Shown here: one piece after another, positions 31,951 through 63,400 of the stretch
Layout: every line of letters begins with the position of its first letter
How positions within the stretch are numbered: the stretch's first letter is position 1
Origin: Lingula anatina
Taxonomy: Eukaryota > Animalia > Brachiopoda
Direction: 5' to 3'
NCBI GenBank assembly: GCA_051362555.1
Contig: CM120648.1
Location: 13,140,587-13,204,586, forward strand
Length of the DNA stretch: 64,000 bases
The notes under the pieces: generated by a model
Databases searched by the model: none
What the model saw: only the letters and a program-made list of their open reading frames with translations
Told to the model about the DNA's origin: nothing
Position numbers and translations under genes: made by a program

Positions 31951-33409
31951 ATGGTGCTTTTTAAAACATCTATGGGAATCATTGTTGAAATCATATTTAA
32001 CATGGAGCATGTTCTTAATTTGAATGAATGGCATGAATGGATGTCTTCACCAGTACTTTGGCTTTGTTTGCCTTAACTCATGATAAAATTGGTATGTGTA
32101 AAAAAAAACACTCTTTAAAACGGTCAAAGGCTGTCGTGTGATCGTGATCATTTGTAAACAGAAGCATATAAGACTTCAGGTGTGACAAACTTTTTAACTG
32201 AAATTTTTAACAGAAATATTTATGTCTAGACCGAAACCTGAGAGGTAACTTTACTGGGCACCATCACAATTTTACCCCTCTCTCCACACAAGCTTTCTTT
32301 CAGTTTCCGAATCAGTGGTGAAGGTTAAAGGAGACCCAATTCATTGGGTAAAAAATTATCCCTCCCAAAGTCCTTTACCCTTTCCTATAAACAGATTTCA
32401 TTAAAAGCTAGAGTTACACCGCGGGGACAATGGTGACAGTGAAGGGTGACTGGCAACCAAACAAAGATTGAGATTTCGCTCAGATGACCTTGGATAGCAT
32501 GAGCGGGGGTGACAACACGGTTCATACTTTGTCAACAAGTTCCTATGGGAGATAGAGTGGAATTGTTGTTTGTGTGCGTTTGGAAGAAAAACCGTATGGC
32601 AAAAGAGATAGGACATGAGGGATTTTCTCAATTTTATTCTTCTTATTTTTTATTTATAATTGTCATTCTGAGTCAAAGTATCGTTAAAAGTCCTAACTGT
32701 GAGATCCGTTCACCTTAAACAAAATTATGGTTATAGCAAAACAAAAACAAAAACACATCAATCAACAGGTAGTCAGTCAGGGACAGATAACTAAGCAAAA
32801 AAGTTCCGTATTAACTGAAAAGAGTCACGAGGCAACGAGAAGGAAATAAACATGCTTATATGTATACTGTTATCAGTCCTCACACATCTGTCATTATTCT
32901 GATAACGACGATGACGAGTTGGAGCTTTCAACCGTTTATTCACCCACTGATTTTACATACAAACTTAAGAGTTCATATGCTCTATATGCTCTCCGTACCG
33001 AAGCCACCTTTCACTCGTTTTCGTTACATTTGCGTAATTACCAGACTTTTCCATTCTGATGTTTCACTCGTCCGTCCATTATTTCCTAATAAGGCAATCT
33101 GTTAGAGCCTTTTTTAATCAAAAATCTACACTTGTATCATACCCGTCACTCATTTAAATGTGTTAAACACGTGATAGAAACTTTCAATTCCATTGTGGAG
33201 TTAACCAAAGAAATAAACTTGGACATGTTCCATCTTTTCCTTACACGGAAAGGGTTTTCTACACTTGTTAACTTTTGAGGACATTTAACTCACACACAGT
33301 AACTCTTTTTCCTTTTACGTCTTTGATTCCCTTTTACTTATTACTTTTTCCCATTCGTTTTTATAATAAGCTAGGACAGTCCCGGCTTCTGGCAGTTTCA
33401 TCACCTGTT

Positions 33410-33520
33410 GAATAAATGGTGACGTAAGTGAGTGACTCGGCCTGATAAGTTGCGGGCAGGTAGGATGGTAGGGTTATAAAAACTGACGTACGGGGACAAC
33501 TTAACCAGCTCCATTATCAC
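33410..33520 (+). promoter_or_regulatory. Putative core promoter of peptide gene A (TGACGTAA, TGACTC, TATA box, second TGACGTA)
   Basis: TGACGTAA 33420-33427, TGACTC, TATAAAAA 33475-33482, TGACGTA just downstream; block conserved in all three copies. Confidence 0.65.
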
Positions 33521-33561
33521 TGCAGCTTGGATAAAATATTGTCTTACAATATAACGTGAAG

Positions 33562-36500
33562 ATGAAGACCGCATTTGTTCTGCTCTTGGTTTTTACGGTT
33601 GTTGCGGCTCGGTAGGTCTATACGAAATTCTTATCCTTATAATTCTTTTAAACATATCTCTTCTATGTAACTATTAGTTGCTTTTGATTGGTTATTCAGC
33701 CATTTCAGATTTACAGTGATAAAGATGTTCTAACCGTCTCTCTTGTCTCACGTGCCATACTCTGTCCTTCTTAAGCCTCCGAGAATGTTTCACCAATGTT
33801 TTCTCTTAACAGGTGGGAGCTCGACCAGCCACCGCCAGGCGAAGGGTAAGCCAAAAACAAAATGTATTCCTTACAAAGATTTTAAAGGAAATGACCTTCT
33901 TCTCGAACGTAATATATATGTAATATGTAATATATTATGAAAATCAGAGGACCTATGAGTACAATCGGTAATACTGTTAGTAGTAAAACTATAGCTAGTT
34001 GTTACCATTTTGATTATAAAGACGTCATGTGTTTGCTGGGTTCATATCTGAACACTGAAAATCGAAAGCAGAAGTATTGAATCAAAAGAGTAGCTTATCT
34101 GTAATATGTTAATTTTTGGCTCAAATTTATACAAATAATATTAGCATACTTTGCAGCCAATTTTCGATGCAGTTTGAGTTAAATTGAATATATAACACAG
34201 ATAAACGACTGTCTTAATTTTACATCTACCTGTAATTTCTGTCATGGTGTATAATCGACAAGGGTGACATATGTCCCGGTGTGGCAGGAGTTCACGTCCT
34301 AGTAACGCAAGACCGCCCGGACAAGTCCGTCCTGGGAATGCAAGTCCTAGGGCATGCATTGCTAGGAATGGAAGTCCTAGGACATACGTTACTAGGATTC
34401 AATGTCCGTAGGACAAAGGCTCCCAAGTAATGTAAGCCCTACGTGTAGTAATGCACGTCCTAATGGGTCGTGCGTTCCTGACATTTTAGTAACGCATGTC
34501 CTATATAGTTTACACCAAGAAAAGACATGACACTTCAGGCAGAATCACCCGATCAAATAATAAGGGAAATATCTATTTACCAGTTGGCAGACATAAAGAT
34601 ATACTGTACTAAATAGGGGCCCAATATCATTCCACACATTTCAATATGGACTTCGATTAAAATATGGAACTTCCTAAACTAGCTCTGTAGTTAGTAACTC
34701 CAAAGAATTGGATACTATTCAAAAGTTGTGTTTTAAAAAGTAAATTTTATTAATACAACCATTAAGTCATGTAGATTTAAGATTATACTAACATAATGAC
34801 TGTGTGGTCACACTATATAAAGTACGTTCAGTTAACAATGTATGATATCATTTAAAGCGGAGGGGGTCCTACTATAGCTCGCATCTATTGTTCAACACGA
34901 TTGTTATCATTTCCCAAACAAGCTAAAACCATGCTTTTACAATTTTCCAAAAAATAAAATGGAATAAAATCGGAGTTGGTTTGAACTGAAAATATAACAA
35001 AAACAACGGCTGTCTAAATTTTACATCTACCTGTAATTTCTGTCATGGTGTGTAATCAAAAGTTTACATTGCCAGATGATACTTATGTTCCAGTTACCTT
35101 TGTTCTGGGAGATTTTTTTTTACCGTGTTCCAATATATGCTGTAGTGATTCAGTCTAATTAAGTTATGGCTTACTAAAACAAAATTAGTAATTCGTGCAA
35201 TAGGTAACAGGGTTTTCTGTATAGTATTTTTATATGTTGTTTGACATTTCAGCAACACTAATAAAAAAAATGGTCCATTTGATGCTTCTTTTATTGTCAG
35301 CACGCTGCATTTCTATAATATTAATTGACAATCAAACTTAAACTAGGTACCAAAATCAATCGCTCTGAAAAACCTTTTTTGATGTTTTTACAACATTGCA
35401 TTTGTAATAGATTAATCATAAAACTAAAACCAGTTGTGATCAAATTTTCGAAGTAAATAAAACACTTCCGTAGCTAAATACAAACTGTATGCTTCTTTTT
35501 CACATTGGCTGTTGAATTATTTTTATTCGCCATGATTTCAGGACAGTGAAACTTTGATAAGAACTTCTTCATGATTATGTGGAATCCTGAAATTATCAAA
35601 CATAATTTCTACCCCGAGTACTAAATATTTAAAAAGCACGTCTGTGACATTATTTGCGCCTATATATTGGGCTTAGATGCATATAGTTTGTATATTACAG
35701 CTCTGTTGGTATTTGGAAGTGCTAGCAGGTGTCTAAACTGCATGGTTACTTTACCAATCTAAAATATTTTTACGTGCGGATGGTGACAATAGAAAGTTAT
35801 GACGGTTGGAATTATAAACACAGGTAACCTAAATTATTAAACTTTTATTTGGGGTACCTGGCGTCACGGCTAATTATAAGACGTATAAATAATAACGTTA
35901 TTTAAAAAAATTACATACAAGTAGCAGATGTTAGGGTGCATAAACTGAGCAAAGGAGCGTGTTATAGCATTGTAGCTCTGCGCCAGATTGACGCAAAACA
36001 GATTTACATTGCCAATATTATTGTATCGCAAGCAACGTTGGGGGCATCTACATCTGGAGTTGAATTCACGTTGGTGCCAAAACCTCATTGGCATCAAAAC
36101 CATCATACATAGCAACCCAAACTAGATCAAACGTAGGAACATTTGCTAGGAGACACCTCAGGAAAAATTTCACAACACAAGATAGAAATAACGCTTTAAA
36201 CGGTCGTGTTTGACTTAGAATCAGTTCTGCTTTTTTTTTTACCTTAATTTAGTGAATCCAATTAAGTATCTGATGTCAAAATTACACTGATTAGAAAATT
36301 AAAATTTCAAACGAGAATTTGAGTCTCGTTTTCATTTTAAAATCTGAAAGTAGGAGAAGTAATGTCATTTAGTTCGTAGTGTTGCGGTTCAGGGGCGACT
36401 TATAAAACGTAGCTTTCATTGTAAGTTTGGGTATGTATGTATTATATTTGGACTATGTTTTATTTTTTAGATTTATTAAGTGTCAATATAATTTAATACA

Positions 36501-36654
36501 TGCTGCACCAGAAGAATTTACACGCGATGACAAACAAAGTTAAGGATTGTTAACATAAGCAGCTTTAAGTCTATTACACAACCCAAGGTACAAGTATGTA
36601 CCCCTGCAAAAGTGACGCTATAGAAGTTATTCAGAGGGGGATCAAGAAACACAC

Positions 36655-36687
<33 letters not shown>

Positions 36688-36899
36688 CAAATATGTAAAA
36701 GTTTAAATGTATTTTCGCAGAAGGCAGAGTCAAGTAACACCCTGTAGGGGACCCGTTTGGCGGTAGTTTTGGAATCACGTCACTTCTTATCTTTAACAAT
36801 CCCCCTTTTCTCTTCCTCAGTGGACCACGAGGTCTTAACGAGGGTATCGTCATGAAAGTCATCAAACGTGCAGTTGACAACCAGAGGATGGAAAGGTAA
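33562..36899 (+). CDS. Secreted peptide precursor copy A (exons 33562-33611, 33813-33845, 36821-36895/36899): MKTAFVLLLVFTVVAARWELDQPPPGEGGPRGLNEGIVMKVIKRAVDNQRMER*
   Basis: ATG about 85 nt after a TATA box; hydrophobic signal exon ending CG|GTAGGT; 33-nt exon (TTAACAG| ... GG|GTAAG); 75-nt exon (TTCCTCAG| ... AG|GTAAAT). All junctions phase 2 and homologous to copies B/C. No exon-4 homologue seen, so the 3' end is uncertain. Confidence 0.72.
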
Positions 36900-37369
36900 A
36901 TATCTGGTGTAGGAATTGTAATTTTGATGTATGTTTTATTTTTAAGTTTTACTTTTTATTCTATTTTCATAGGATTTCGATCAATTCATTCAAAATATAC
37001 CTAACCCAGATTAACTGAAATCAGGCGGTGTTTGTAAAGTTATTAACAAAGTTTAACCCATGTAGCTTCAACATATGGCACAGTCCAAATGGTATGAGTT
37101 GCAATAAATATACTAGTACACCATAACTATCCATATTGTTTAAATGTGAAGAATGGACACGGTAAAATGCCGGTTTTCGAAATTTACCGAAACAGCGCCT
37201 AAACTGAGATTGCCCCTCGAAATGAAATATGAAACTTTAAAAAGCATGATTTTGTTTTATTAATGATGAAAGCTGAACTACGGCGTTTGATAAAATCGCT
37301 GTCAGGGTTCTCGAGTATTAAATAGTGTAATTAAATTACATTACATTTGCAAGTCTGGAAGGGTGATAT

Positions 37370-37900
37370 TGGTTGAGGTGCCATGTCAGTCCGCGTTTTG
37401 GGTGAATTCCATGTCAATGCTTATGGTTTTGAAGAATCTTCATTCCGGAACAGAGCATTAATTGGTACATTTGCAGTAACTTTCTCAACAGATATCTCCC
37501 TCCATCAGTAGAAAGTGACTTCACTTATGAGTACAGGCTTCATCATGACAACGCACTGGCTAACAGTTCTTGTTTGTTGACTGATTTGTTGCAGAAAGGA
37601 GATATTCTTAGATGGGTACAACCATCTTTGGGGTCGAATACTAACGGTACTGAGTACCTGAGGGATGATTTGGAGTGAGCGATGGACAGAAGGATTGTCC
37701 CTAACAATAGGAAACAATTTCGTTAAGCTCTTAAAGAATAATGGCACAACATAAATAGACCTGAAACCCTTGTTGGAGGCATTCTGGCCGCCTACAGGAG
37801 ATATATGCAGTACGCTGCAGAGACCCACGCTAATATGCACATGACTTTTAAAGAGCGTTTCCTGATGTTGATTATGTATACATTAATGACACTTGGTGGC
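37370..37900 (+). mobile_element. Old Tc1 transposase C-terminal remnant, duplicated with the peptide-gene unit
   Basis: Reads HHDNALA...QPSLGSNTNGTEYLRDDLE*...ALKE*WHNI, a decayed form of QDNA..H / WP..SPDLNPIE.LW / L..EW..I. Confidence 0.65.
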
Positions 37901-39519
37901 GTCTTTTAAATTTTATGGTCATTTTTCACTTCTATGGAAATCACTGTGGAAATCATATTTAAGATGGAGCATGTTCTTAATATGAATGGATGGCATATTG
38001 GCTTTTCCTTACCTGAAGTCACCATAATCATGGCATATGAAATTAATACAATATTTAAAACGGTTCAAAGCTGTCATGTGATCGTGATCATTTGTAAACA
38101 GAAGCACATACAGGTAGGACTTACGGTGTGACACACTTTTTTACCGAGAAGTGTATAATAAAAATCTTTATGTCTAGACCGAAACCTCTAAAGTAAGCTT
38201 ACAGGGCACGGTCACAGTTTTACCTCCATCTCCACACAAACCCGTGAACAAACACAAACCTGTTTCCTTCTACCTTTGAGTTTCCGCATCAGTGGTGAAG
38301 GTAAAAGGAGACCCAATTTATTCGGTAAGAAAATTTCCCTCACAAAGCCAAAAGAAATGTACACAGGTTTTCCACTTTTCTTCTTTTACCCTTTATTATA
38401 AGCAGCCTTCATTAAAATCTAGAGTTACACTGCGGGGCCAATGGTGACAGTGGGCCGTGAACGGTGACTGGCAGCCAAACAAAGATTGGATTGTCACTCA
38501 GATGGCCTTGGATAGCAGGAGCGGGGGTGACAACATGGTTCATACTTTGTCGACAAGTTCCTATGAGAGAAACTGTGGATATGTTGCTTGTACGTGTTGG
38601 GAAAAACCATATGGCAAAAGAGACAGTGCTTGAGGTTTTTCCTCAATTTTATACATATTATTTTTCATTTAATTGTCGTTCTGAGTCAAAGTATCTTTTA
38701 AAAGTCTAACTTTTCCACAAAGAGATCAGTTCACCTTAAACAATATTATGGTTATAGCAAAACAACGACACATGAAGTGATGTCATCAATCAACAGGCAG
38801 TCAGAAATTTGCAAAACTGGATATAATCGGTGTCATCAGGAAACCATGATGCTTTAGCATATCACTACTGGGGAAGGGGAATTCTACATGTACATAAAGA
38901 CACCCCAAGATTCTTAGCAAAAAAAATGCGGTATTAACTGAAAATATCCATGAGACCATGAGAAGTCCTCACGCATTTGTCTTTATTCTAATGACGAGGA
39001 CGACGAGTTGGAGCTTTCAACCGTTTATTTACCCACTAACCTTCCATACAAATTCAAGAGTTTATAGCTTTATATGCTCTTCGTGCCATCACCCATTTAC
39101 TCGCTTTTTTTTTTTTTTTTTTCATTGTAGTTTGCGTGATTACCAGACTTTTCCATTCTGTTGTTTCATTCGTCCATCCAATATTTCCTAAGGAGGCAGT
39201 CTGTTAGAGCCTTTTTTAATCAAAAATCTAAAGTATTTGAATTATTCAAACTTGTGTCATACCCGTCACTCAGTATGCATGTGTTAAACACGTGATGGAA
39301 ACTTTCAATTCCATTGTGGAGTTAACCTAGGAAATAAATTTGGACATGTTCGATCTTTTCCCTACACGAAAAGTGTTTTCTTCACTTGTTAACTCTTAAG
39401 GAAATTTAACTCACACTCTTTTTCCTTTTACCTATTTGATTCATTTTCAATTATTCCTTTTTCCCAGTCGTTTTAATTATAAACTAGGACATCCCCGGCC
39501 TCTAGTGGTTTCAGCACTG

Positions 39520-39630
39520 TATAAATGGTGACGTAAGTAAATGACTCGGCCTGATGAGGTGCGGGCAGGTAGGATGATAGGGTTATAAAAACTGACGTAC
39601 GGGGACAACTTAACCAGATACATTACCACT
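39520..39630 (+). promoter_or_regulatory. Putative core promoter of peptide gene B
   Basis: TGACGTAA 39529-39536, TGACTC, TATAAAA 39584-39590, TGACGTA; same spacing as copy A. Confidence 0.65.
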
Positions 39631-39676
39631 GCAGCTTGGATAAAACATTAATATTGTCTTACGATACAACGCGAAA

Positions 39677-42600
39677 ATGAAGACCGCACTCGTGCTGCTC
39701 TTGGTATTTACGGTTGTTGCTGCTAGGTAGGTTTTAATGGAATTCTCATACTCATACCCCCCCCCCCCCTTTACATCTTTTGTCGCCTTTGTGCGACCAT
39801 GAATCTGGCCCAGTTTCACTAAAAAACTTGAGTCAGTCCCTGTTTATTTACTTATTTATTTATTTATTTTATTATTTTTTTTTTTTTTGACAGTTGTCAG
39901 CATGTACAGTATTAAAACAGTGCCGAACTCGGGAACATCCAGTGTAAAGGGGGTTTACATGTGATTTTTAGATTTCGTCGATTATTTTATTCAATTATTT
40001 CAGATTTGCACGGATAATAAACTGTTTAAAAATCGTCTCCCTTAACAAACCATACTCGGGTTTCCCATAAATTCTGAGAATTTTTCACCGATATTTTGTC
40101 TTACCAGGTTGGGACTCTCGGAGGCACAAGAGGATAATAGGTAAGTCACAATAATAATAGCATTTACTTGTTTCAACGATTTTAAGGGTTATGCCCCGCA
40201 GGGTAGCCCACAATTATGTATTAAAAGTATGAACTTAGAGAAAATATACGTACCATAGGTAATGTAACCTTACAATACAACTAACACTTTATATCAGTAA
40301 ATTTTGAAAAGCAATGCATGTGATATTCCGTCAAAATAAAAAAGCGAAGCTTGTTTGAAATGTATATTTTTGGGCCCAAATTTTACAAATGTTATAACAT
40401 AATTTGCAGCTGATTTTGTGGCGGACAGTAGATAGCTGTGCGTTTTTCTTAACAGCATACTCTTAGAAAAACCGATTTTTCTGTTTTTACCTGAAATCGA
40501 AATTTCGACGTCACCTGTTAGATGACATATGTGTAAATGTCATTTAATTTAGTCGCTGAACACTGAAGATCTATTTATTACCCCCAAAAAATGTATGTAT
40601 GTATGTAAATAAATAAGTGGTTTTGGGTGAAGGATGACAATATCCTAAAGGACAGCGTCGGTATAAGACCTAATGAGCGGCTGAGGCGCACCAATCACGC
40701 TACTACAGTTTGTTGACTCTAAGCTCTATTGGTATTCGGAATGGCAAACCGGTGTCTTAACTGGACACCCTATACCTGGTCAATAACTTAAGAGCACGGA
40801 AACGTGTATTTGGGCTTATTTCCAATGAAACTATATATATGGCTACGTAGAACTCTGATTAGCACGCCTTCTCTTGTTTCTAACGTACCCATATAATCAT
40901 TCGCTCCTTTGTATTTTACTGGTACCCAACGCCAGGAGGAGAATGACAGAATTATTCTCAAGTTTGTTGCCAGCCTGACATTCCGAGCCTGAATTATCAA
41001 ATTCAAAGTCTTTATAGCTTCTGTTAGTCACGTGTGCCGTTGACACGTGAGTCAGTCCACAAATGTCACTGAAGCTCGTTACGCACTTGACCGGCTTCCA
41101 AACTGCTTACAATAAAGTAAAAAAATTTCAGATTGTTTGTATTGGTTCAACAGCTAACATGCTCCTTCTTCGCTGTTGGTCTTTGATGCATGACTTGGCA
41201 AGTGTCAACTTACTTTTATAAAGGCAATTTCAATACCAGTAAAAACTAAACCCGAGGCGCTGCAGTAAACCAGTTTTGCAACGCTGCACCAACAATATCG
41301 TATCGATAACTATATCGTAGGTAAATAAGCTTTGGTATTTTGTGAGCGTTCTGCAAGATATTAGGTTGACGAGGCATCATTACGTGCGGTTTTTCTTGAA
41401 AACAACACATGCGTCATTACTTTTGTGGATATTATAGCCTTTATTTGAGAGGTTCATACAAGTTAGACTGCAGAAAGAGCCAAAAATCATGAGGTTCCAG
41501 TGTAAGTACGGGTGTTCTCTTCACGTCCCTGCATTGTTTCTTATATATAACTTTTTTTCTCGCATCGTCGATACGCCCCCCCCCCCCCTCCCCTATGCAG
41601 AGAGAGAGATCGACCTGTACCTTATGCCCCCATCATATTAAAGCACTCCTGTCACCTCACCTGGTGCCGCCGTGTCTATTGGGGAGTAGAGCTGTGCTGT
41701 CCCTTGAAGTGCCTAAATGTATCCCATGACCCGACTTGACCTTAAAGCACTCCTGCCATCTCACTTGGTGACACCGCGTATTTTAATGTCCTCCGGGGCG
41801 TAGTACTAAGGTCATGGGGCGATTTATGAAACGCAAAATTATTTTTAAGGTTGGGAATACATACTTGATTTTTTTGGACAATTCCCTTTTTCAGTTTTAT
41901 TTAGAGCCATTGTAATTTATCTTACGCTACACTTGCTGTATCGTATGCCGAAAAGTACACAATGAGGCCATTAAGTATAGAAGATCCGAGGATCTTCTGA
42001 TCCACAGATAAATTATGACGGACCCTTCATGAAAGAAGAGCCGACTACCCCTTCGAAATTTTGTCTCATTTAACATTCATTTACAGTTCTCCATCTATTA
42101 TTGAACAAATAATATATATCTCCAAAACTGGCAGAGATAGGTCAATAGTTACAATTGAAGTTGAATAGGAAGTCATGTATTGGCAATTTAACTGTGACCT
42201 TGAAATTGACCTTTGACCTAATTTTCACCATGAACTGAAAATTTTCCTTCCTTTTTATCTCTAAAACTGGCAGAAATAGGCCCATAGTTACTATTGAACT
42301 TGAATAGGAAGTCATATACTGGTAATCTAACTGTGACCTTAAAATTGACCTTTGACCTAATTTTTGAAATGAACTGAACTGTGCAACTTTTTCAGTGCTT
42401 ATACTTTCAAAACTAGCAAAGATTTGCCCGTAATTACTATTAAATTTAAATAGGAATTAATATATTGGCAATCTAACTGTGACTTAAAAATAGACCTTTG
42501 ACCTACTTTTCACCATAAACCGCACTTTGCAAGGTTCCCTTTATATCTCCAAAACTGGCAGAGATACACCCATAGTTACTATTAAACTTGTAGGAAGTCA

Positions 42601-43079
42601 TATACTGGCAATCTAAGTGTGACCTTAAAATTGACTTTTGACCTACTTTTCACCATGAACTGAACTTTGCAACATTTAAGTTCCTTATATTTCCAAAACG
42701 GGCAGAGATAGGCCCATAGTTTTTATTAAACTTGTATGGAAAGTCATATACTGGCAATCTAAGTGTGACCTTTAAATTGACTTTTGACCTACTTTTCATC
42801 ATGAACTGAACTTAGATAGGTCCATAGTTACTTTTGAAGTTGAATAGGAAGTCATATACTGGTAATCAAACTGTGACCTTGAAATTGACCATTTACCTAC
42901 TTTTCATGATATATATATATTTTTTTAATCTCAAAAACTGACAAAGATATGACCATAGTTACTATTGAACTTGAATAGGAAGTCATATACTGGCAATATA
43001 ACTGTGATCCTGAAATTGAACTTTGACCTAATTTTTATTATTATATATTTTTGACAATGACCTTGTTAAATTTCATTTA

Positions 43080-43132
<53 letters not shown>

Positions 43133-43689
43133 CATTGTAGTAGCAGTAATAGTATCAAATATGTGTACAAGTTGCAAGCATCTTTGCACAGGGCTGAGTC
43201 AAGTAACGCTGTGCAGGTGTCCGTCACGTGGTGTTAATGGGTGTCATATACCTGTGGTAAGTCCTAACAATTCTCTTTTCTTATTTCCCAGAGACTGTCT
43301 AGAAAATAACAGGTGCCTCCTCCTGAAGGTTATCAAACGTGCCGTTGACAACCAGAGGATGGAAAGGTAAATAACTGCCTTATTTTGGAAAGGTGCAAGT
43401 TTTATTTATTTATTTAATTTTTTTTTTTTTTTTTCGTGTCACACTCTGATTTTTTACTCGAGATTTCGGTAAAATTTTAGAAACCAATGTAGAATATCGA
43501 CGAGCGTACTAGTACGTACCCCTGACACCTTTTGAACAGTCATTCAAAATATTAAGTTTAGCCCAGTATTTGACTTCCCTTATTTTGCTTTATATGGAGT
43601 ATTTTCTGATTTTATTTATTAACAGCTCCGAGCACTCAAACATTGAACATGCGCCCCCACAGAAGGTTGTCAAACGCAGCGTGAAGTAA
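39677..43689 (+). CDS. Secreted peptide precursor copy B (exons 39677-39726, 40108-40140, 43292-43366, 43626-43689): MKTALVLLLVFTVVAARLGLSEAQEDNRDCLENNRCLLLKVIKRAVDNQRMESSEHSNIEHAPPQKVVKRSVK* (73 aa)
   Basis: Canonical GT-AG phase-2 junctions give a continuous frame: signal peptide, C-x5-C loop, two KV[IV]KR dibasic sites. A further acceptor at 43968|43969 (TTTCGTTACAG) and ATTAAA at 44073 suggest a terminal, probably UTR, exon. Confidence 0.8.
42115..43035. repeat. Tandem satellite-like array, ~8 units of ~115-120 bp
   Basis: Recurring AAAACTGGCAGAGATAGG...TAGGAAGTCATATACTGGCAATCTAACTGTGACCTTGAAATTGACCTTTGACCTA; present in intron 2 of copy B only. Confidence 0.9.
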
Positions 43690-45664
43690 ACAAAGTAAAT
43701 GCACATGGAAAAAGGTGACCCAGATTTTTCTTTAATTGGGCGTGAGAGCAAATTCATTTGATATATTTTTATCAAAAAATATGTTTTAAAATGTTAATGT
43801 TACGTTTCCACTCAATGCTACAAATCAGATTTGATTATCATTACGGTTCCAGCCTAGTCGATAGTTGCTCATGACTGAAGTTAAAAACGAACGATTACAA
43901 AATGTAGATATTCAATTTACGATACTATCCGTCCGTTTAAAAGAAATGTCCAATTTCTTTCGTTACAGGTGTCTGTTCAATGTCCGTTGAATGCAGTTGG
44001 AAACCTTTCTTGGAGGAACACTGAAGAGTGCCCTGAGTGCCCATATATTTACTGCTACATTTGATACAGAACATTAAAATCACATGCACTAGTTAAAATC
44101 TTTTTTTTTTATTTTCTGATGCAGCCTTAAGCAAAGTGTCAAATATTATGACCCTGAGTTATACATTGTTACAGTCGCTCTTCGCTTACATTTTGAGAAT
44201 AAAATGTTTATCTTATAAAGGTCTACCGTACCACTTATTGTTTGTGAAGTTGTACTCTTTGTGCACAATATCTGAGTTATCTGAGTAACGCAATTCTGTT
44301 AATTAGTATCTTTTTGCAAACAGTTCTTTTTAGCATCTTTAATACATGTATTTAAATAAAGACGTCAAGTGTAAAAGTAGGTATACACCTGTCTTGATTT
44401 TTTTGTACTATATGAATTAAAACGTATTGAAATACAAATTATTAATTCAATTTTGTATGCAAAATTAATTTTTAAGAGAGAGTTGAGAACGAGATACAAT
44501 GGGGAAAAGGCGTAACAGTAAAGGGAGATATTTTTGAAACAGCGCGTTTAAAATTTGGTTGAGCCACGATCCCCAGGGTATTGTGCTTTTGTTGTCACAT
44601 CTTTGTCTTCTCTAACACAATCTTCAGCCTGCAATCTTCCATACCTGTCGCAGTATTGTTATTCAAATAAGAGCAATCGCATGCGACAACTATTCAAGAT
44701 GCCAGGAAGGAAGACAGATTTTCAGGCAGACTGTGAAGATTTCCGTGAATGCAACATGATTCATTCAGGTCTTCCTGCTTAAATTCTCCACATCAGCGTG
44801 TAAGTACAGTTTGAATGTTACTTTTCTTGCTACTGTATGTGACAAATACGCATAACACTTTCTAGTAAGATGGGGTATTTCAAAATTTTATCCTTGTGTC
44901 AAGTTCTCTGCTTTTTATCTAATCACTCAGAACGCCTGGACGTACGCGTGTTTTAACTGTTTATTTCTTAGCTGGTTATTTTTTCGTTTGTAGATGCTGT
45001 ATTTTAGTGATATTTAGTCTTGACATTTGATTCTAATGGAATGGTACATGAACTTTCGTACTTATCAGTATATAATCATACTCGTGAATTTCTTTATTTT
45101 CGTCCATTCTTTTGTCCTTGGACGCTGCACTGGTATTTGCAATACACGAAATTTTAAGTATAAGAGCATTACCAACGCATTGACTTTAGTACTGTCGAAT
45201 AAATGATCTCTTTTCTGACTTAATATTTTATTTCTAATTTCAGTTGTCCGGGCATACGAGTGATAAAGATGAAGATCGTTTCCTAGGAATAGACTTGTGA
45301 AGATTCTTTTGTCTATAGCTATTTATATTAGTTTGATCTTACCATCCATATTCCATATTTCATCTGCTTGCAGTCAGATTTCATCAGAATCAGACAAAAG
45401 AATCTTCACAAGTCTATTACAATAACATAGCTAATGAAACTGTTCTACAGTTTCCTAGGAAGAAGTAACAACAGTTCAAATACACCTTTTAAATTCAATA
45501 ACATGGATGCATGTTATACGAATGCAATGTGCATTTACACCGACACTGTAATGCACTTGCAGTGAAGTAGTAAAGGGCGGATAAAACGGGAACTCACTTT
45601 GATAATGTATTATTTTACTGCCTACTCAGTTGCAACGTTCGTTTGTACCCCCCAAAAAACTTAA

Positions 45665-46003
45665 AGGGATAATAAATCTTCGTTTCGGCCAAAAAATGAA
45701 ATTTCCTGGAGTAAACAACAATTTTTCCATACTTACCAATGGTTAATGAATCCATTTTTACATGCAAAGATAGTCCCTGGTTTTTTCTAAAAAGTTTGGT
45801 TTTTTGTTAAAATCTCTTAAGAGATTTTAACAGAGTATAGCCATCAATGGAGGTCACGTGGTCTAAAGACAAGCTCAGATATCAGAATAATAGCTATAAC
45901 TGTGCCGTTTTTGTGGTAAAACAGAATATATTATATTTTTATGAGTTATTCACAATGTTTTTTAATGTGAAATATAGATCTCATACGAAGAGTTATTATC
46001 CCT
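45665..46003. mobile_element. 339-bp MITE with TTAA target duplication and AGGGAT termini (Kolobok-like)
   Basis: TTAA|AGGGATAATAA(A)TCTTCGT ... ACGAAGAGTTATTATCCCT|TTAA; absent from the paralogous site after copy C (~62521-62535). Confidence 0.82.
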
Positions 46004-47542
46004 TTAATTGGTACAAACCATTTATATTTAATGGGTGTTTAAAAATATGACGGAGGCGCTTGTTGAGGCGGGGGGACCATGAGGTAATTACTCGGCGCTA
46101 CTTTTAAGCGAGTCGACCATATTTAGACCGTGGATCTGTTAGTCCGCAGAACAGCTTGTTCTGAATACGTTCTGTGGTATACAGTTTTACTCAGTTTACA
46201 AATTTTATTTGTGCTCCGACGAAAATGGTAAATAGATGATTTTTTCCTCATATGGTCAGATGTTTGCATAAGCTAAGCGTCCTTGGTACAACACATTCCA
46301 TTCGTATTACCTTGAAATCTGTGTTGCACGCTTATACATAAATACCGGTACATTGAAATAAATTGAATAAATCCTGACCAAATCTAAACAATATTTGTAT
46401 CTTGGTTTATTTTTCATATTTCCTATCCTTGCTGAAAATGAAGGAAAAAAAGGACCCGTTCCTTTTTTTTTCACTTCGACCGCCCGTTATTAACTGTAGA
46501 GTCCCCGAGTCGTGATTCTCGAGTTGTTGGGCTAAAGGATTTCATTCGCATTAAATGAAACTTTATAGTCCAATTCACCCATCCACTCACCCTTAACTTT
46601 GGAGCCTCTATTTATGGTTATGGGACGAATATTCTTTTTTTTTTCTGCAAAAAGTGACTTCATTGGATATTGATCTTGTCGCCTTCTTGTTCTCAGTCCA
46701 GCATTTTACCGGTTCTTCTGTTCAACCAACAGCCCACACTGTGCCAAAAACACTCTTTAAAACGCTTCAAATCCGCCATCTGATCATGATCATTTGTAAA
46801 CAGAAGCACATAGGGCTTAAGTTGTAACAAGCCTTTTGACCTAAAGTGAATATTAATAATCTTTATGTCTAGACCGAAACATCAGAACCCATCTCACAGG
46901 ACACGGTCACAGTTTCGCCATATCCCACGTGTACCCCTCTCTCTCCACACAAACGCGTGAAACACAAACTTGTCTCCTTCTACCTTTCAGTGATAAAGGT
47001 TTAAGGAGACTAAATTTATTTGGCACAAATTTCTCCCTCACAAAGCCTGAAGGAATGTACACAAGCTTTCCACTTTTTTCTGTCACCCTTTCCTATAAAC
47101 CATGGATCCATCCATCCATACGTGTCTATTAATCAATATGAGATTGACGTGAAATGACCTTCCATCTTGCCCTGTTCTTTTCTTTATTCGTGCATTCTTC
47201 CATTGATTTACTTGTCTGTCCCAGATATTTGAAACTCACAACCTGTTCCTTTTATCATCGATGGTTATGTTTGTCCCCAGTGGATTTTTTAAATCAACAT
47301 GACTTGCCAATAAACAGCCTTCATTAAAAGCTAGAGTTACATCGCGGGGATAACGTTGACACCCTGGAAGTGGGCCGTGAACGGTGACTGGCAGATAAAC
47401 GAAGATTGGAATGGCCTTGGACAGTAGGAGCAGGGTGACAACATGCATGTAGTCCACACTTTGTTACAAGCTCCTATGAGAGAAAGCGTGGATTTGTTGC
47501 TTGTGTGCGTTTGGAAGAAAAAACATCTGGCAAAAGAGTATG

Positions 47543-54258: not shown

Positions 54259-54352
54259 ATGAGGACCGTACTTGTTCTGCTCTTGGTTTTTACGGTTGTC
54301 GCGGCTCGGTAGGTAGTTTTACACTTGACGGCTTCCTTTCGGTGTCCTATGG

Positions 54353-54409: not shown

Positions 54410-57400
54410 TTGTTGTTGTTGTTAAACTGGGACCAGTCATCGGTGTGGTCGTAGCAAGAAGGCACAACAATCGCTTTGGTTGCAGAATGAATGCTCATTT
54501 GTTTGGCCAGTTGTCGGCACGTTAAGTATTTATTACTCTCAAACAAGGCCATACTAGGGGGCATGGAAAGGACGCCGTCCAGTTTAAAGGGAAGGGGAGT
54601 TACATGCGACTTTCAGATTTCGCCGACTATTTTATTAAATTATTTTAAATTTGCACGGACTGTAAATTGCTTTTTAAAATAATCGTCTCCCTTAACTCAC
54701 CATACTCGGATTTCTTATTATTGTTGAGAATTTTTCACAAATGGTTTTTCTTTCAAAACAGGTTAGGATTCTCGGAGGAACAAGGTAGAGGGTAAGTGAA
54801 CATTAAAACAACCTTAACTTGTTCCAACTCGTATGGACTCCCATTAGAGAAAGGTCCCATTTTATATTTGCTGTTGTTTTTTCCATTTTTTCCCAAAGCT
54901 GAATGAAAAATGGGGATTGATGATTTTAAATGGATAATAAATTTGCATTCTTGTACCCATAGAATTTTGACTCCCCTAGTCTTTCAAATACACACACTGG
55001 ACAATAGAAGTGTCACCCCCTAAATCAGAGTAATAAAAGTAGGCAGATCTTGGGTAGTTATAATGCCTGATCTACTTATAATGAGACTTATGAGTATAAA
55101 ACCGCTATACCAGGGGATTGTATTGTTGGTCTTGTACAAGTACAGCAAATTTTATTCCTGTCTTCCTCCAATATGGCAAGATACAGGCAATTATCTAACG
55201 GTTACAGGCGTCAAGTTATTAACCTGAAGAGGCGGAATATAAGCAATGTCAGAATATCGATACAATTGAATTGTTCAGTCAGAACCGTGCAGAGGTTCTG
55301 GTCTCGGTATAGAAACCCTGGATCAAGAGACAAATTGCCTCTGATGGGTCGTCCAAGAAAAACTACTGGCCGTGAAGACCGACGACTGATTTTGATGTCC
55401 AGGTTGTCAAAGTTTGACACTGCTTGTCAGTTGACAACACAGTGGAACAATTTCATACATAAGAATGTGTCTGTGAAAATTGCTAGGCGTCGGTTACATG
55501 CTCAGAGAGTGTACAGCAGGGTAGCAAGACTGAAATCTCTTATATCGTTACAAAACAGGCAACGTAGAGTGAACTAGGGTCAACAGGATCTGGAACTGGA
55601 CAGTTCATGACAATTGTTCCTATATATTTTTTTTCTGATAAGTGTCGCTTTGGTCTGACCTCTGATGACAGACTGGTGCGATATGCTGGCGAACTGCTGG
55701 TAAAGCATTTGTACCACATGCACTGAATTTTCGAACCCGGAGCAGTATATTCATCATGGTGTGGGGCTGCATCAGTATCCATGGCTTGGGCGAATTGATA
55801 GTGGTTGATGGAAACACGATCGAATCACTAGAAATATATCGATGTTTTGGAGTCAGGCTTGCTACCATCTATTACTAACATGTTTGGTGACAGGAATTAT
55901 CCATTTGTTCACCAGGATGCTCCTTGTCACAGGCCCAGAGCAGTTGATCATTGGTTTGACCAACAGGGCATTCGCAGGGTGATGTGGCCTGCCCAGAGTC
56001 CGGATGCAAACATAATGGAAAATGTGTGGAATGATATGTCAAAACTTTTGACAAATGCCCGTCTAACCAGCAGAGAAACTCTGTTATATTCAGTGTTTCA
56101 TGCTTGAGCCAGCAGAAGCCCTGGACGCACCAGACAATTATATGAATCCTTGCCTCGTAGACTGGCACCTATTATTAGGTCACTTGGCTATGCCACTAAG
56201 TACTAATTTTGGACTTGAAACTGCATATTTTGGTAGAATGTATATTTTGTTATCATTTTGTGATTTTTTGTGAAATTTGATGTTAATAAAATGATACTAG
56301 GAGTCATTCCACAATCATTTATCTCTCCCATAGTATTGGTTCAGTAGGGGTGACACTTGTCCAGTGTGTGTATTTCCAATATAATCTTCATAAAGGAAAA
56401 GTTAAGGAAAGGTGTTGAAATGATCATCAAATATTAAATTAGATAGCTTTTTCATAGGATAGTTATTGGGTGATAAAATGCCCTTTTTTAATTTTCTTAT
56501 TTTTCATTTTTTTTTTTTTTTTTTTTTTAGATTTTTCACCCAATATTTTACTATCACACTTTCGAATATTTCCAATATAATCTTCATAAAGTAAAAGTAA
56601 AGGAAAAAATTTGGAATGATCATCAAATATTAAATAGATAGCTCTTTCACAGGGGAGTCACTGGGTGATAAAATGCACATTTTTGATTTTCATATTTTTC
56701 ATGTTTTCTTTTAATCCAATAGTTAACCATCAAACTTTCAATTATTTCCAATATAATCTTCATAAAGTAAATTTAAAGAAAAGACGTAGAAATGATCATC
56801 CAATATCAAATAAATAGCTTTTTCATAAAGAAGACAATGGGCGGTAAAGTGCACATTTTTAATTTTCTTATTTTTTCATGAAAATTTTCACCTGCAAACT
56901 AAAAAAGTGCCAATGTATCCCCCATTTTACATACTACAAGATCACAGTCATATACTCAAATAAAATAAGATTTAGGCCACACTTTTTTTATTTTTATGGA
57001 TGACATCCTCTGGGTACCCCAAAATCGGTGCGAGAGGGCGAAAAAAAAAAACAGTCCAAAAAAAAAAACTGCTTAAGTAAAGGAATGCTGTCAGTACACA
57101 GCTGGAAACACAAATTTAACCACAGAGACACGTATCAAACTAACAATATGTCTTTATCCATGCTCTCAAAATATTAAAGCATTGTGAATACTTCGTAGAA
57201 ATGTAAAAAAAAAGTCATGAATTGATATACTTCATATTACCAAATCTATTTAAGGTTATTTCATGCATTCATTTGGTATAGCAATCAATAAAACAAATAT
57301 CAATCAAACAGTGTGTCTTTATTTGTATTCTCAGAATATTAAAACATTTTGAACACTTCACAGAAATGTTTAAAAAATGAGGCAAAGATATGCTTAATAC

Positions 57401-60400
57401 TACCAAATCTATTAAAGGTCATTTCAGACGATGCCATTTTGTCAACTTCAACTCACACGAAGCAGCTAAACTGTCAGGTGGCCTGTCCGACCTTCAGCCC
57501 ACCAAATACCTCGACGCCCCTTGTCGACCCTTTTTTCGCTACAGAAAACCTGGTATTAATGTGCTGCTTTAAACAGAATGTCACAGAAATGTTTCGGCCG
57601 CCGCCAGCCTTTCGCACAATTGTAAAAAGGTGATATCTCCATGCCCAATATCAATGGCATACCAATCCAAAACGATGGCGCCCGTTCTCTTTATGACTTA
57701 TTGTTGTGTAATTTGAAAGTAATCCTAGAGATGAATTTGACAGCAAAGTGGCCGCATTTCCACGTGGCGAAAATACGCATGCGCAGAAAGCTCATTTCCT
57801 TGCAAATTCAATAACAACGTTTGCGACAACCGACTTCGTTGGGGGCTGGGGGGGGCTTTTTTTTTTTTTTTTTTTTGGAGAACGGACGAAAATCCATGCG
57901 CGCGCAGGATGTCATCCATAAAATTAAAAAAGTGTGGCCTTATGAAGTTTTGTGGAGGGGGAGTCAAATTTTCATGGGGGGAGTCAGATTTTCATTATGA
58001 AAATCTGACTGGGGTAGTCAGATTTTCATGGGAGTCAGATTTTCATGTTACACCGGGCATATATTTGGCTCTGTAGCCATTATATCGTGGACACACAAGC
58101 ACGAAATGGTACTCGTCCTCTATGTATGCTTCATTATAAGCGTTGCAGCAGAAATCACAATGTCTAAATTTGGGATCTATATTCTGATATCTACCCCTCT
58201 CGATTTTCAAATCATGACATGACGTTCTGAGCCGTGATAAGGCACTTCGCAATATCGTAGGTAAATACCCCTTGATAGATATTGTGCAAGATATTACATT
58301 GATGAGTCAACAGTGCGTGCGTTTTTTTTTTTTTTTTTTTTGTTTTTTTTAACAACAACACTTGTGTCATCACTGTTGTGCAAAGTATAGCCTTAATTTG
58401 AGAGGTTAATACACGTTAGACAGCAAACGGAGCCAAAAATCTTGAGTTTCCACTTTAAGTACGGGTGTTCTCTTCACGTCCCTGCATTGTTTCTTATAAA
58501 TATCTTTTTTTCTCGCATCGTTGATACCCCCCCCCCCCCCGCCACCTCCCACCCCACGCAGAGAGAGAGTTCAACCTGTAGGCTACCATAAATTTCGATC
58601 ACATTAAAGCACTCTTGTCACCTCACCTGGTGACACCGTTTCTATTGTGTCTTTGGATCTGCGTTCGTGTACTTGGAAGTGGCTGAATGTATTCCACGAC
58701 TTGACTTGAACTTTAGGCACTCCTGCGATCTCACTTCGGGGCCTATAGTGTAAAGGTCATGGGACGTTTTTAAAGTTGGGAATACATGCTTTATTTTTTG
58801 GACAATTTCCTTTTTCAGTTTTATTTAGAGCCATTGTAATTTATCTTACACTACAGTTGAGAGATTCATATTTGCTGTATCGCATGTGCCAAAGGTAAAC
58901 AGTGAGGCCATTAAGTATAGAAGATCCGAGGATCTTTTGATCCACGGATAAAATATGACGGACCCTACATGAAAGAAGAACCGACTACCCCTTCGAAATT
59001 TTGTTTCGTTTTACATTTCTCAAGCTATTATAAAACATTTGGTGTATTTTTTTTTATTTTTTTTTTTAATTTTTTACAGTTCTCATGTTGTTTTGTAACG
59101 AATTTAAGAGTTCGAGAACTGTTTCTGGGAAGTCCTTCAGAACTGTAAAATAAAAAAAATTTGAACCAGCGCAAGTTTTTATTTACTTTCAACTTCAACA
59201 TTTTTTTTTTTAAGTCTTACATTACATTCAAACCACGTGTGACCAACAAACATGTCACAACTTCACCCCGCATGGAGTCCACACTCTCTCCAACATGGAA
59301 AAACTACTCCTTCACTCCTTTTTTACCACTGCATATTCACCTCTAACACAATTTAACACAATTGGTCACAACCATACAACAACCATATTTGACATTAAAA
59401 GAGAAAAACATTATGTTCTAGGACAGATTTAGAACCGCGAGTGAGCGTTAAATGAGACAAATTTTCGCAAGGATAATCCGCTGATGGTGTTTCGCCTCCA
59501 CACTCGCCAGTAAACGGCTGCGAGGTTTAATTGCTAGACCCCTGCAAGGACGGCGCGTTAGTCGGCTCTTCTTTCGTATAGGGTCCCCCATATTTGATCC
59601 GTGGATCAGAAGATTCTTGGATCTTCTGTTCTCAAGAGCCTAAAGCACTTCTGCCATATCTCATTTAGTGTCACCGTGTCTTTAGAGGCGTAATGTTTAC
59701 GTTGGGGTTATTATATATTGGCGACATATAGAACTTTAGGTTCTTTATATGGTTGAGAATTCATGTTTTATTGTACCACCAGCGTAAGTGATGGCGGTAT
59801 ACATGTTGCATGTTTTATTATTGCATATTTTTGACAATGGACTTATTTAATTTTTATTAAGAGCCATTGCAGTAGTAGTAGCAGTAGCAGTAGTTGTATT
59901 AAATATGTGTAAAAGTTACAAGCATCTTTGCAAAGGGCAGAGTCAAGTAACGCTCTGCAGGTGTCCGTCACGTGGTGTTCATGGGTTTCATATAGGCCTA
60001 CCTGTGGCATGGTAAGTCCTAACAATTCTCTGTTCTTATTCCCCAGAGAGTGTCAAGGAATTACCAAGTGCCTTCTCCTGAAGGTTATCAAACGTGCCGT
60101 TGACAACCAGAGGATGGAAAGGTAAATAACTGCCTTATTTTGGAAAGGTGTAAGTTTTATTTATTTTTATGTATTTTTTTTCGTGCCACACTCTGATTTT
60201 TGACTCCAGATTTCGGTGAAATTTTAGAAACCCATGTAGAATATCGACGACCGAACAATTACGTACCCATGACACCTTTCGATCAGTCATTCAAAATATT
60301 ACGTTTAGCCCAGTATTTGACTTGTCTTATTTTGCTTTATATGGAGTATTTTCTGATTTTATATATTAACAGCTCCGAGCACTCAAACATTGAACATGTG

Positions 60401-60436
60401 CCCCCCCAGAAGGTTGTCAAACGCAGCGTGAAGTAA
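54259..60436 (+). CDS. Secreted peptide precursor copy C (exons 54259-54308, 54762-54791, 60047-60121, 60373-60436): MRTVLVLLLVFTVVAARLGFSEEQGRGECQGITKCLLLKVIKRAVDNQRMESSEHSNIEHVPPQKVVKRSVK* (72 aa)
   Basis: Same splice sites and phases as copy B; exon 2 is one codon shorter (30 nt), so frame is preserved. Probable terminal exon from 60716. Confidence 0.8.
54991..56370 (+). mobile_element. Tc1/mariner DNA transposon, full length, transposase inactivated
   Basis: TIRs CACACACTGGACAA...GTGTCACCCC / GGGGTGACAC...TTGTCCAGTGTGTG; TA target duplications at 54989-54990 and 56371-56372. Confidence 0.93.
55173..56206 (+). pseudogene. Tc1-family DDE transposase pseudogene
   Basis: HTH region SVRTVQR, GRPRKTT.REDR, MVWGCI, HQDAPCH, WPAQSPDANIMENVW, terminal GYATKY*; broken by a stop at 55575-55577 and by frameshifts. 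Confidence 0.9.
56975..57939. mobile_element. Non-autonomous TIR element with TTA target duplication (PIF/Harbinger-like)
   Basis: TIR GGCCACACTTTTTT(T)ATTTT(T)ATGGATGACATCCT at both ends; TTA at 56972-56974 and 57940-57942; the empty site AAGATTTATGAAG is seen in other foldback subunits (e.g. 49772-49784). Confidence 0.82.
58058..58255 (-). mobile_element. LINE ORF2 3' fragment
   Basis: RSALSRLRTSCHDLKIERGRY...RHCDFC...IEDEYHFVLVCPRY..YR is the typical C-terminal Cys/His region of non-LTR retrotransposon ORF2. Confidence 0.8.
58917..59630. mobile_element. Non-autonomous element with ~110-bp imperfect terminal inverted repeats (only the left end is retained in copy B, at ~41978)
   Basis: AGAAGATCCGAGGATCTT(T)TGATCCACGGAT...GAAAGAAGAACCGACTA is mirrored by TAGTCGGCTCTTCTTTC...ATCCGTGGATCAGAAGATTCTTGGATCTTCT. 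Confidence 0.6.
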
Positions 60437-63400
60437 ACAAAGTAAATGCACACGGAAAAGGTGACCCAGATTTTTCTTTAATTGGGCGTGAGAGCAAATT
60501 CATTTAATATATTTTTATCAAAAAACTATATTTTAAAATGTTAACGTTACGTTTCCACTCAATGCTACAAATCAGATTTGATTATTATTACGGTTCCAGC
60601 CTAGTCGATAGTTGCTCATGACTGAAGTTAAAAACGAACGATAACAAAATGTAGATATTGAATTTACGATACTATCCGTCCGTTTAAAAGAAATATCCGA
60701 TTTCTTTCGTTACAGGTGTCTGTTCAATGTCCGTTGAATGCAGTTGGAAACCTTTCTTGGAGAAACACTGAAGAGTGCCCTGAGTGCCCATATATTTACT
60801 GCTACATTTGATACAGAACATTAAAAGCACATGTACTAGTTAAAATCTTTTTTTTTTCTGATGCAGCCTTAAGCAAAGTGTCAAATATTATGACCCTGAG
60901 TTATACATTGTTACAGTCGCTCTTCGCTTACATTTTGAGAATTAAACGTTTATCTTATATTATAAAGGTCTACCGTACCACTTATTGTTTGTGAAGTTGT
61001 ACTCTTTGTGCACAATATCTGAGTTATCGGACCTTAGAGAGGACACCAATATTGGGGTCTGGTCTCTCTCGCGGCGATGTGTGCTAGTCGGACCAGCGTT
61101 AGAACGTGCTTGCTCCACAACTCACATAGTCTTTATAAACCGCTGAAGTAAAAAATAAATGAATAGATTAATAAAATCTATGAGAAATCACGCAATTCTG
61201 TTAATTAGTATCTTTTTGCAAACCGTTATTTTTAGCATCTTTAATACATGTATTTAAATTAAGACACCAAGTGTAAAAGTACATGTAGGTATACACCTGT
61301 CTTGATTTTTTTGTACTATATGAATTAAAACGTATCGAAATACAACTTATTAATCCAATTTTGTCTGCAAAATTAATTTTTTAGAGAGAGTTGAGGACGA
61401 GATACAATGGGGAAAAGGCGTAACAGTAAAGGGAGATATTTTTGAAACAGCGCGTTTAAAATTTGGTTGAGCCACGATCCCCAGCGTATTGTGCTTTTGT
61501 TGTCACATCTTTGTCTTCTCTAACACAATCTTCAGCCTGCAATCTTCCATACCTGTCGCAGTATTGTTATTCAAATAAGACCAATCACATGCGACAACTA
61601 TTCAAGATGCCACGAAGGAAGACAGATTTTCAGGCAGACTGTGAAGATTTCCGTGAATGCAACATGATATATCCAGCGCTTCCTGATTGAATTTTCCGCA
61701 TCAGCGTGTAAGTAGCCTACAGTTTGTATGCGACTTTTCTAGCAACAGTATGTGACAAATACGCATAACATTTTCTAGTAAGATGGGGTATTTCAAAACT
61801 GAACCCTTGTGTCAAATTCTCTGCTTGTTAGCTAATCACACAGAACGCATGGGGGTGTTTTCACTGTTTATATCTTAGCTGTTTATTTTGTCGTTTGTAG
61901 ATGCTGTATTTTAGCGATATTTAGTGTTGACATTTGATACTAATAGAACTTGGTACATGAACTTTCGTAAACAGCATAAATAATGATTATAAGTGACTTT
62001 TGGTTATCGCACCTTCAAGGGCAATATGACCTAATATTGCTACAGATGTACAAGCATGTTTAATGCAGTGTAATTGCGGTTCCCTGTATATTCTCGAATG
62101 AAATCAACAGAAGAAACCTGTGAATTTCTTATTTTTGTCCATTGTTTTGTTCTTGCACGCTGCCCTGGTATACGCAATACACGAATTTTTAAGTGCATTG
62201 TCACAACGTTGACTTAAGCGCTGTGGAATAAATGATTTCTTATCTAACTTAATACTTAATTTCTAATTTCAGTTGTCCAGGCATACGAGTAATAAAGATG
62301 AAGATCGTTTCCTAGGGGGAAATAACAACAGTTCAAATGAACTTCTAACGGTCAATAATGTGGATGTATGTTATACGAATGCGGTGTACATGTACGGTGA
62401 CACTGTCCAGAATGCGCTAGTAGTGAAGTAGTAAAGGACGAGCTGATTAAATGAGAACTCACTTTGATTACTTGGGATCATAGTGCCTACTCAATGTACG
62501 TTTGAAACATAACCTATCAAAACTTAAATTGGTACAGACCATTTATATGTATAGGGTGTTTAAAAATATGACGGTGCAAATAGAAATAGTAACTAATTTT
62601 ACTGTTTGCGAGATTTCTAAATATTTTGATTAACTTAAAGTATCTGTGCCAGGGTTAAAGGGTTGTAATTACATCAAAGTAGGAATGTTGAATTGATGAA
62701 ACGGGGACGATGTGACTGGAATAGTAGTCCTAGAAATGGCATAATCATTGTCCTATTTACATTATTTCTTGGTGATGATGTTTGATTACTTTTTAATGGC
62801 TAAAAGACAAGAAGAATGGTTAAGGAATCTAAGATTCTGTCTACGTTTGTAACATTACCCAGCGTACTTAAATCGGTACAAACAATTTTACTGATATTAA
62901 TAGGACCTTCTGAACGATGACGGGACGTAGCGAAATGGTTGCTACCCGGTAATTCAAGTTTGCGAGATTTTGAAATATTTTTGATAATCTAAACATTTTA
63001 TGCAGAACAAACTCCATGTCGCTTCTTGAGACATGGATTTTTCCATGGTCTGTAAGGATAATTTCCTCTGTGTTACTATATAATATACGAGTCCATTCAC
63101 AACAGATGATCCGCCGACTAATATGACCGACCCCACTAAAAACAATGCCGCTTAATTCCTGATGGTCTCCCTGCCTCCAGAGGCTCCGAGATTTAACTGC
63201 TAGGCCCCTGCAGCGAAGGCGTGTGTGGAGGCGGGGAGATCATCAGGTAATAAGTCGGCAGTGCTTTTAAGTGAATCGGCCTTATTTAGTTTGCAGATAT
63301 GTTAGTTCACGGATCAAGTTCTTCAGAATGCGTTCTATGGTATACAGTTTTGATCAGTTTACAGATTTTATTTGTACTCCGACGAAAATGGTAAATAGAT

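Follow-up and report, generated by a model that had tools for sequence, protein, structure and literature searches.

Comparison of the window (the whole 64,000-nucleotide stretch of Lingula anatina DNA analysed here; AT-rich, 36 % GC, intron-bearing and of animal type) with itself placed three copies of a short gene, A, B and C, in tandem on the + strand. Copy B has five exons. The coding part of exon 1 (39677..39726) carries the ATG and 16 hydrophobic, signal-like residues. Exon 2 (40108..40140, 33 bases) has AG/GT ends, and its letters precede those of exon 3 in a contig of run X5. Exon 3 (43292..43366, AG/GT) encodes the end of a variable peptide, a Lys-Arg site and the start of a linker; the C-x5-C motif within it (43296..43316) would form a ring through a predicted disulfide. 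Exon 4 (43626..43714), entered by the splice 43366>43626 and left by 43714>43969, holds the remainder of the linker, a second Lys-Arg and the stop codon (43687-43689); 13 of the 14 bases at 43663-43676 match the K-V-I-K-R codons of exon 3. A start of exon 4 at 43969 was considered and rejected, since reads splice to 43626. Exon 5 (43969..44210, end approximate) is untranslated and contains AATAAA/ATTAAA at 44073 and 44198.

The coding part of exon 1 of copy C lies at 54259..54308, and its exon 2 (54762..54791, 30 bases) supplies the letters that precede the C-type ring in 13 reads of run X12. Exon 3 (60047..60121) encodes the ring CQGITKC, and all 35 reads of X11 and all 14 of X12 have the C-type letters there. 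Exon 4 (60373..60460, stop 60434-60436) and the start of exon 5 (60716) were placed through the splices of C-type X12 reads aligned on B. In copy A the coding part of exon 1 (33562..33611) is followed by a Pro-rich exon 2 of 33 bases (33813..33845, predicted from sequence) and by exon 3 (36821..36899), in which a cysteine-free variable part precedes the same Lys-Arg and linker; read unspliced, exon 3 stops at 36897-36899. No exon 4 or exon 5 of copy A was found within the window.

All three promoters (33420-33491, 39529-39600 and 54117-54188) have a pair of CRE-like sites at a spacing of 64 bases, together with an AP-1-like site. The predicted sites in the promoter of copy B (39520..39600) are TGACGTA at 39529 and 39593 and a TATA at 39584; copy A has CRE-like sites at 33420 and 33484 and a TATA at 33475, and copy C has CRE-like sites at 54117 and 54181 without an exact TATA match. 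Six of the nine TGACGTA matches in the window (both strands) fall in these promoters. The precursors have 73 (B) and 72 (C) residues with Lys-Arg at 43 and 42, respectively, and in both a second Lys-Arg sits three residues ahead of the stop; their order is signal-like start, variable peptide, Lys-Arg and constant linker. Mean hydropathy of the first 16 residues is 2.2-2.4 across the copies (2.3 in B). The introns of the family are in phase 2, and exons 1-3 have AG/GT ends.

Read evidence was taken from seven of the 21 listed runs (X4, X5, X7, X11, X12, X14 and X17). The splice 43366>43626 was found in 13 X12 reads and one X5 contig and the splice 43714>43969 in five X12 reads and one X5 contig; the letters of exon 2 stand as a loose end ahead of B exon 3 in X5 and X17. 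Spliced, expressed forms of the family occur in five RNA-derived data sets from four studies (reads of X11, X12, X14 and X17; spliced contigs of X5). X5 is listed as 'DNA?', but is likely RNA-derived because its contigs are spliced. The region of copy A (36632-37993) has an RNA depth of ∼4-7 per mate direction in X17, part of this stretch being repeated elsewhere.

The B-type ring was found in four of the seven runs (X4, X5, X7 and X14; three studies) and the C-type ring in three (X7, X11 and X12; two studies), X7 carrying both. Assembly error as the source of the difference between B and C was ruled out by this recurrence in independent runs. Among the variant sites listed, both rings are unchanged across independent samples, as read from contigs that drop rare variants. 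Each RNA set holds a single ring type (35/35, 14/14, 4/4 and 116/116 reads), which fits the use of different copies in different tissues, stages or animals. The B-type contig in X5 has a depth of 1295 and one unplaced difference in exon 3. In X12 the loose-end consensus at 43292-43295 (agreement 0.75) hints at another first-codon residue in some C-type reads.

Direct alignment of exon 3 of B (43292-43366) with that of C (60047-60121), two 75-base exons bounded AG...GT, gave seven differences in 75 bases. Five of these lie at 43300, 43303, 43306, 43309 and 43312, each the second position of one of codons 3-7, and change the ring from CLENNRC in B (43296-43316) to CQGITKC in C (60051-60071) by L>Q, E>G, N>I, N>T and R>K. 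The remaining two lie outside the ring, at 43295 (D>E) and 43319 (synonymous). Both Cys codons are the same, none of the ten first and third positions within the ring has changed, and codons 10-24 are identical (0/47 bases). The letter pattern as originally predicted (five non-synonymous second-position changes, D>E, one synonymous change and intact Cys codons) was thus reproduced exactly on realignment. The adjacent introns, which had been called highly similar, are ∼92 % identical (13/155 bases differ at the end of intron 2 and 20/250 in intron 3, plus indels). Given five changes, the chance that all fall at position 2 is 1 in 3003, calculated post hoc.

The ring was compared with the flanking introns, as the original prediction had proposed. 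It differs at 5/15 bases, the introns at 33/405 (8 %; Fisher p 0.007); counted over non-synonymous sites, the ring has 5/11.8 (pN 0.42; p 0.002 against the same 33/405), 5.2 times the intron divergence and 2.3-3.9 times that of older backgrounds. The excess was found, but B and C resemble each other more closely in the flanks than over the remainder of the units, so that homogenisation likely accounts for some of the contrast. Against the older backgrounds, 5/15 gave p 0.02-0.14, the comparisons with intron 1 and the far 3′ flank (18 %) giving p 0.13-0.14, so that density by itself does not reach significance there. Along the precursor, codons 1-11 of the exon have six changes in 25 non-synonymous sites and the part after Lys-Arg one in 79 (p 0.0007); the contrast of non-synonymous with synonymous change gave p 0.055 for the whole gene.

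The ring region was chosen after the pattern had been seen. Of 8000 simulations of a 75-base exon at 8 % divergence, four produced a five-step ladder; a 15-base stretch with at least five differences, at any place, was found in 7.7 % of the simulated exons and in 43 % of 480-base blocks. Over all repeated pairs in the window, three of 1213 five-difference windows are one-phase ladders (∼1.2 expected); these three overlap and all of them are this ring. With the window-wide count near expectation, the ring pattern is notable for its location and not for its existence. The chance that five changes are all non-synonymous is 0.31. Taken alone, the pairwise test on the ring is suggestive, not decisive.

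Divergence between B and C is patchy. The promoters differ at 21/195 bases (11 %), intron 1 at 29/165 (18 %), mid intron 2 at 92/705 (13 %) and the far 3′ part at 44/238 (range 10-18 %), whereas just behind exon 4 the count is 15/592 (2.5 %); overall the two units are 11-19 % apart elsewhere and 2.5-8 % apart around exons 3-5. The promoter and exon 1 of C are nearer to A than to B (15/201) and its 3′ half is nearer to B, which makes C a mosaic. About 2 kb upstream of A and B is also duplicated (31615-33641 and 37586-39756, 75-81 % alike). A template switch from nearby DNA was rejected as a source of the ring changes, as no template within two mismatches of either ring was found elsewhere in the window.

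Further versions of the stretch were read from 30-base loose ends of contigs and from read stacks rather than from assembled genes, and were compared by eye and ungapped. Version D (X17) has the ring CEGITKC in 116 of 116 reads, together with a B-like exon 2, B's letter at 43319 and an exon 4 of its own; it differs from C at one ring site (43299, Q>E relative to C) and at many sites in exon 4, and may be an allele, a paralogue or the form of a distant population. Loose ends in X7 and X5 gave two more versions, one cysteine-free and one with a single cysteine elsewhere. The stretch thus exists in at least six versions (A, B, C, D and the two from loose ends), which are very unlike one another before Lys-Arg and near-identical after it.

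At the five ring sites D has C's letter in all five cases, the two loose-end versions in four each (neither letter at 43300) and copy A in three, with B's letter at 43309 and neither at 43300. Because these four versions share C's letter at three to five of the five sites, the changes likely fall mostly on B: by this polarity at least three of them, and probably four or five, would be new on B. When all five are assigned to one branch, the test over five backgrounds gives p 0.0002-0.009; four give p 0.003-0.04 and three p 0.02-0.16. The cysteine-free version has CGT and GGT at the places of TGT and TGC in B and C, and copy A also has GGT at the second; with relatives that lack cysteine and codons one step away from each Cys codon, the two-cysteine ring would be a young gain, and the comparison suggests that it was acquired recently.

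Selection on the ring is, on this evidence, the probable evolutionary step. The ancestral ring would have resembled the G-I-T-K found in C and in other versions. B would have exchanged Gly, Ile and Thr for Glu, Asn and Asn, so that a once hydrophobic and weakly basic ring became polar and neutral; the changed surface would alter binding or specificity. The linker, exon 4 and the 3′ end of the two copies would have been made alike by exchange, in the same period or afterwards. In its full form, in which copy B underwent a short burst of positive selection once it had split from C and the processing model given below applies, this reading has about an even chance. Copy A, which has B's letter at 43309, stands against it, as does the weaker range of p (0.02-0.16) that applies if three changes only belong to B. 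The original prediction had proposed strong diversifying selection on a disulfide loop that would contact a variable target or receptor. Its amino-acid excess in the ring (pN 0.42) was upheld; many alleles were not seen, and both the unchanged recurrence of the B and C rings at the sites listed and the agreement of four versions with C speak for something narrower. A directional burst on one duplicate fits better than ongoing diversification. As for the contrary outcome foreseen in the prediction, a loop at background level between converted flanks, the flanks are likely homogenised and the contrast of non-synonymous with synonymous sites within the ring was not significant (p 0.26), but the loop exceeds every background measured.

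The likeliest of the evolutionary alternatives is a conversion mosaic. The ring would then be an old or imported tract, either spared while its flanks became homogenised or brought into B from a paralogue outside the sample, and no special selection on the five codons of B would be needed. The patchy divergence described above is of the expected kind, with 15/592 behind exon 4 next to 0/47 in the rest of exon 3, as are the closeness of the promoter and exon 1 of C to those of A and the joining of a B-like exon 2 to a C-like ring in version D. An old tract should, however, also vary at third positions, and none of the five does; only 4 of 60 intron bases ahead of exon 3 differ, so that the spared tract would be ∼25 bases long; more distant relatives keep C's letters, which marks the ring as conserved and not drifting; and any donor would have had to acquire five second-position changes of its own. 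The window contains no such donor, though the family extends beyond it. We consider the mosaic unlikely as a replacement for selection on B.

Chance or relaxed constraint, in which the ring of B lost its importance, changes accumulated neutrally and the regular pattern was picked out afterwards, draws on the simulations: dense 15-base windows are common under the neutral null (7.7-43 %), the chance that five changes are without exception non-synonymous is 0.31 and the ladder count is near expectation. The neutral rate is nevertheless a ceiling, and the ring exceeds every background measured (2.3- to 5.2-fold); both cysteines, Lys-Arg and the frame have been kept, and B is well represented in X5 (depth 1295), which leaves this explanation with a small probability. 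Ongoing diversifying or balancing selection across alleles and copies, such as an arms race against a variable target would produce, could call on the at least six versions that vary before Lys-Arg and on the added change at 43299 in D, but it is improbable to a similar degree, since among the sites listed the ring of B is the same in the window, X4, X5, X7 and X14 and that of C in the window, X7, X11 and X12, and C and D differ at one ring site but at many sites of exon 4.

As for processing, the precursor would enter the secretory route and lose its signal, and a convertase cut at Lys-Arg would free a peptide of ∼14-26 residues ending in K-V-I, in which two cysteines would close a seven-residue ring in B, C and D by a putative disulfide. 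The products of the family are thus likely secreted short peptides, and they most likely act extracellularly on a receptor or binding partner. Net charge ahead of Lys-Arg is -1 in A, -1 in B and +1 in C, and the tail has a net charge of +1 over 29 residues in B and C. This near-zero charge favours a signal acting on a receptor over a classic cationic antimicrobial; a role as signal, pheromone or gamete cue is adopted tentatively, at somewhat under an even chance.

In calcitonin-type peptides, which convertases release, a C-x5-C ring close to the start is followed by ∼25 residues and an amide derived from Gly-Lys-Arg. The ring size is shared with the present family, which differs in lacking a Gly ahead of either Lys-Arg and a match in Pfam, in the mere six residues that follow its ring and in its mostly ringless relatives. 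In the precursors of echinoderm sperm-activating peptides and of apidaecins, variable short peptides lie between constant, convertase-flanked spacers; an X5 contig in which the linker runs into another module resembles this arrangement, without a sequence match.

Myticalins of mussels form a taxon-restricted multigene family with a conserved signal, a hypervariable middle, Lys-Arg and a conserved C-terminal extension (PMC5577615). The same order of signal, variable middle, Lys-Arg and conserved tail, and the multigene nature, link the present family to myticalins and modiocalins. Myticalins are described as linear and strongly cationic, with an anionic tail, three exons, the signal and the mature part in exon 2 and a signal consensus starting M-K-G (PMC5577615). 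The present family is unlike them in its near-zero charge, its tail of +1, the ring in some copies and the lack of a sequence match, and in its five exons and phase-2 introns, with the signal in an exon of its own and the variable part spread over exons 2-3. MgCRP-I peptides of Mytilus have six invariant cysteines and a C-terminal mature part, and multi-module precursors occur (PMC4558851). With these and with conotoxins the family shares duplication, amino-acid change between preserved Cys codons and a function not obvious from sequence (PMC4558851, PMC3823881); its site counts favour positive selection between the Cys codons. Unlike that type, it has two cysteines or none, a middle position of the mature part and modules that seem to be whole exons. 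The Rana box of frog peptides is a C-terminal two-cysteine ring in a cationic peptide (PMC6591156). Seven residues and two cysteines also make up the ring predicted here, but in contrast to the Rana-box peptides it is followed by six residues and Lys-Arg, and the likeness is likely convergence. The family lacks a defining feature of each of these systems and is set apart as a new one.

A host-defence family, myticalin-like, mucosal or humoral and killing or binding microbes, is a possible but less likely function. It is supported by the myticalin-like order of the precursor (PMC5577615), by the ring size shared with frog Rana-box peptides (PMC6591156) and by the CRE- and AP-1-like promoter sites; the variable part, at -1 to +1, is however not cationic, the tail, at +1, not anionic, and the exon layout is another one. 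There is a slim chance of a function other than signal, defence or venom. A venom or deterrent family is very doubtful: the loop varies between unchanged Cys codons as in conotoxins (PMC3823881) and mussel CRP-I (PMC4558851), but no Pfam or solved-structure match was found, the mature part lies before Lys-Arg and most versions of the family are ringless.

Pfam returned no family for four exon pieces, and no protein match was found in a set of 5.8 billion sequences (queries of 24-77 residues), in 1.84 billion representatives, in Atlas or in PDB sequences. Each protein query covered one exon only, and those run against the 5.8-billion set, the 1.84-billion representatives and Atlas were led by 20 or 6 intron-encoded residues; with queries so short, the blanks say little about homology. 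A 26-base pattern had no match in metagenome contigs. Twelve short peptide motifs and the topic of the family had no match in the literature searched, the scope of which ends short of subscription papers and supplements. The family is called undescribed in the sense of not found in that literature; peptide catalogues published as supplements or behind a subscription may already include it. The genes are short, with 30-90-base exons of the type that gene callers miss, and may plausibly encode ligands or defence peptides that have escaped listing.

One contig of X5 and four reads of X17 join the end of an exon 3 to an exon 2 (43366/40108 and 36895/40108). These joins may have arisen because transcription read on from A into B, or because exons 2-3 were back-spliced into a circle of 108 bases that has no stop. 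They keep the frame and place an Arg after R-M-E, which we take to be a furin-like site. One X5 contig runs from the linker end of exon 3 (behind 43366) into a module-like start resembling the cysteine-free versions; other parts of the genome may thus hold members of the family with more than one peptide module. It is conceivable, if rather unlikely as a whole, that this is a lineage-restricted exon-module family in which a linear peptide gained a ring by two point changes, the ringed gene was duplicated, one copy rewrote every ring position under selection for a new receptor and read-through splicing strings the modules of neighbours into multi-peptide precursors. Fast-evolving secreted peptide families are already known. 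Here a single species would retain the linear ancestors, a new ring and the rewriting of that ring on one branch, which makes a compact test case for the origin of a small cyclic peptide and its change of target; three or four synthetic peptides would cover the whole path.

The surroundings of the three copies hold an inverted gene pair and several repeats. The pair (2932-11440, + strand; 21697-27370, - strand) has a large Cys-rich exon, which gave a weak somatomedin B match (E 0.038), and a last exon with a hydrophobic tail; its sole distant match is P0004, a secretin-family 7TM protein, and the two genes look like membrane-anchored receptor-ectodomain proteins. A LINE-type element with endonuclease, reverse transcriptase and frame breaks (50674-53844) ends ∼200 bases before the promoter of copy C, and a broken Tc1/mariner-like transposase (55071-56107) lies within intron 2 of that copy. 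Intron 2 of copy B contains a tandem repeat of ∼140 bases (42115-43050), a very abundant, transcribed repeat family; its summed contig depth in X4 exceeds 1 million, and its RNA depth in X11 and X14 strongly favours one side. A short repeated element (45660-46008, also 1687-2045 and 5586-5822) has high RNA and contig depth in all four runs compared.
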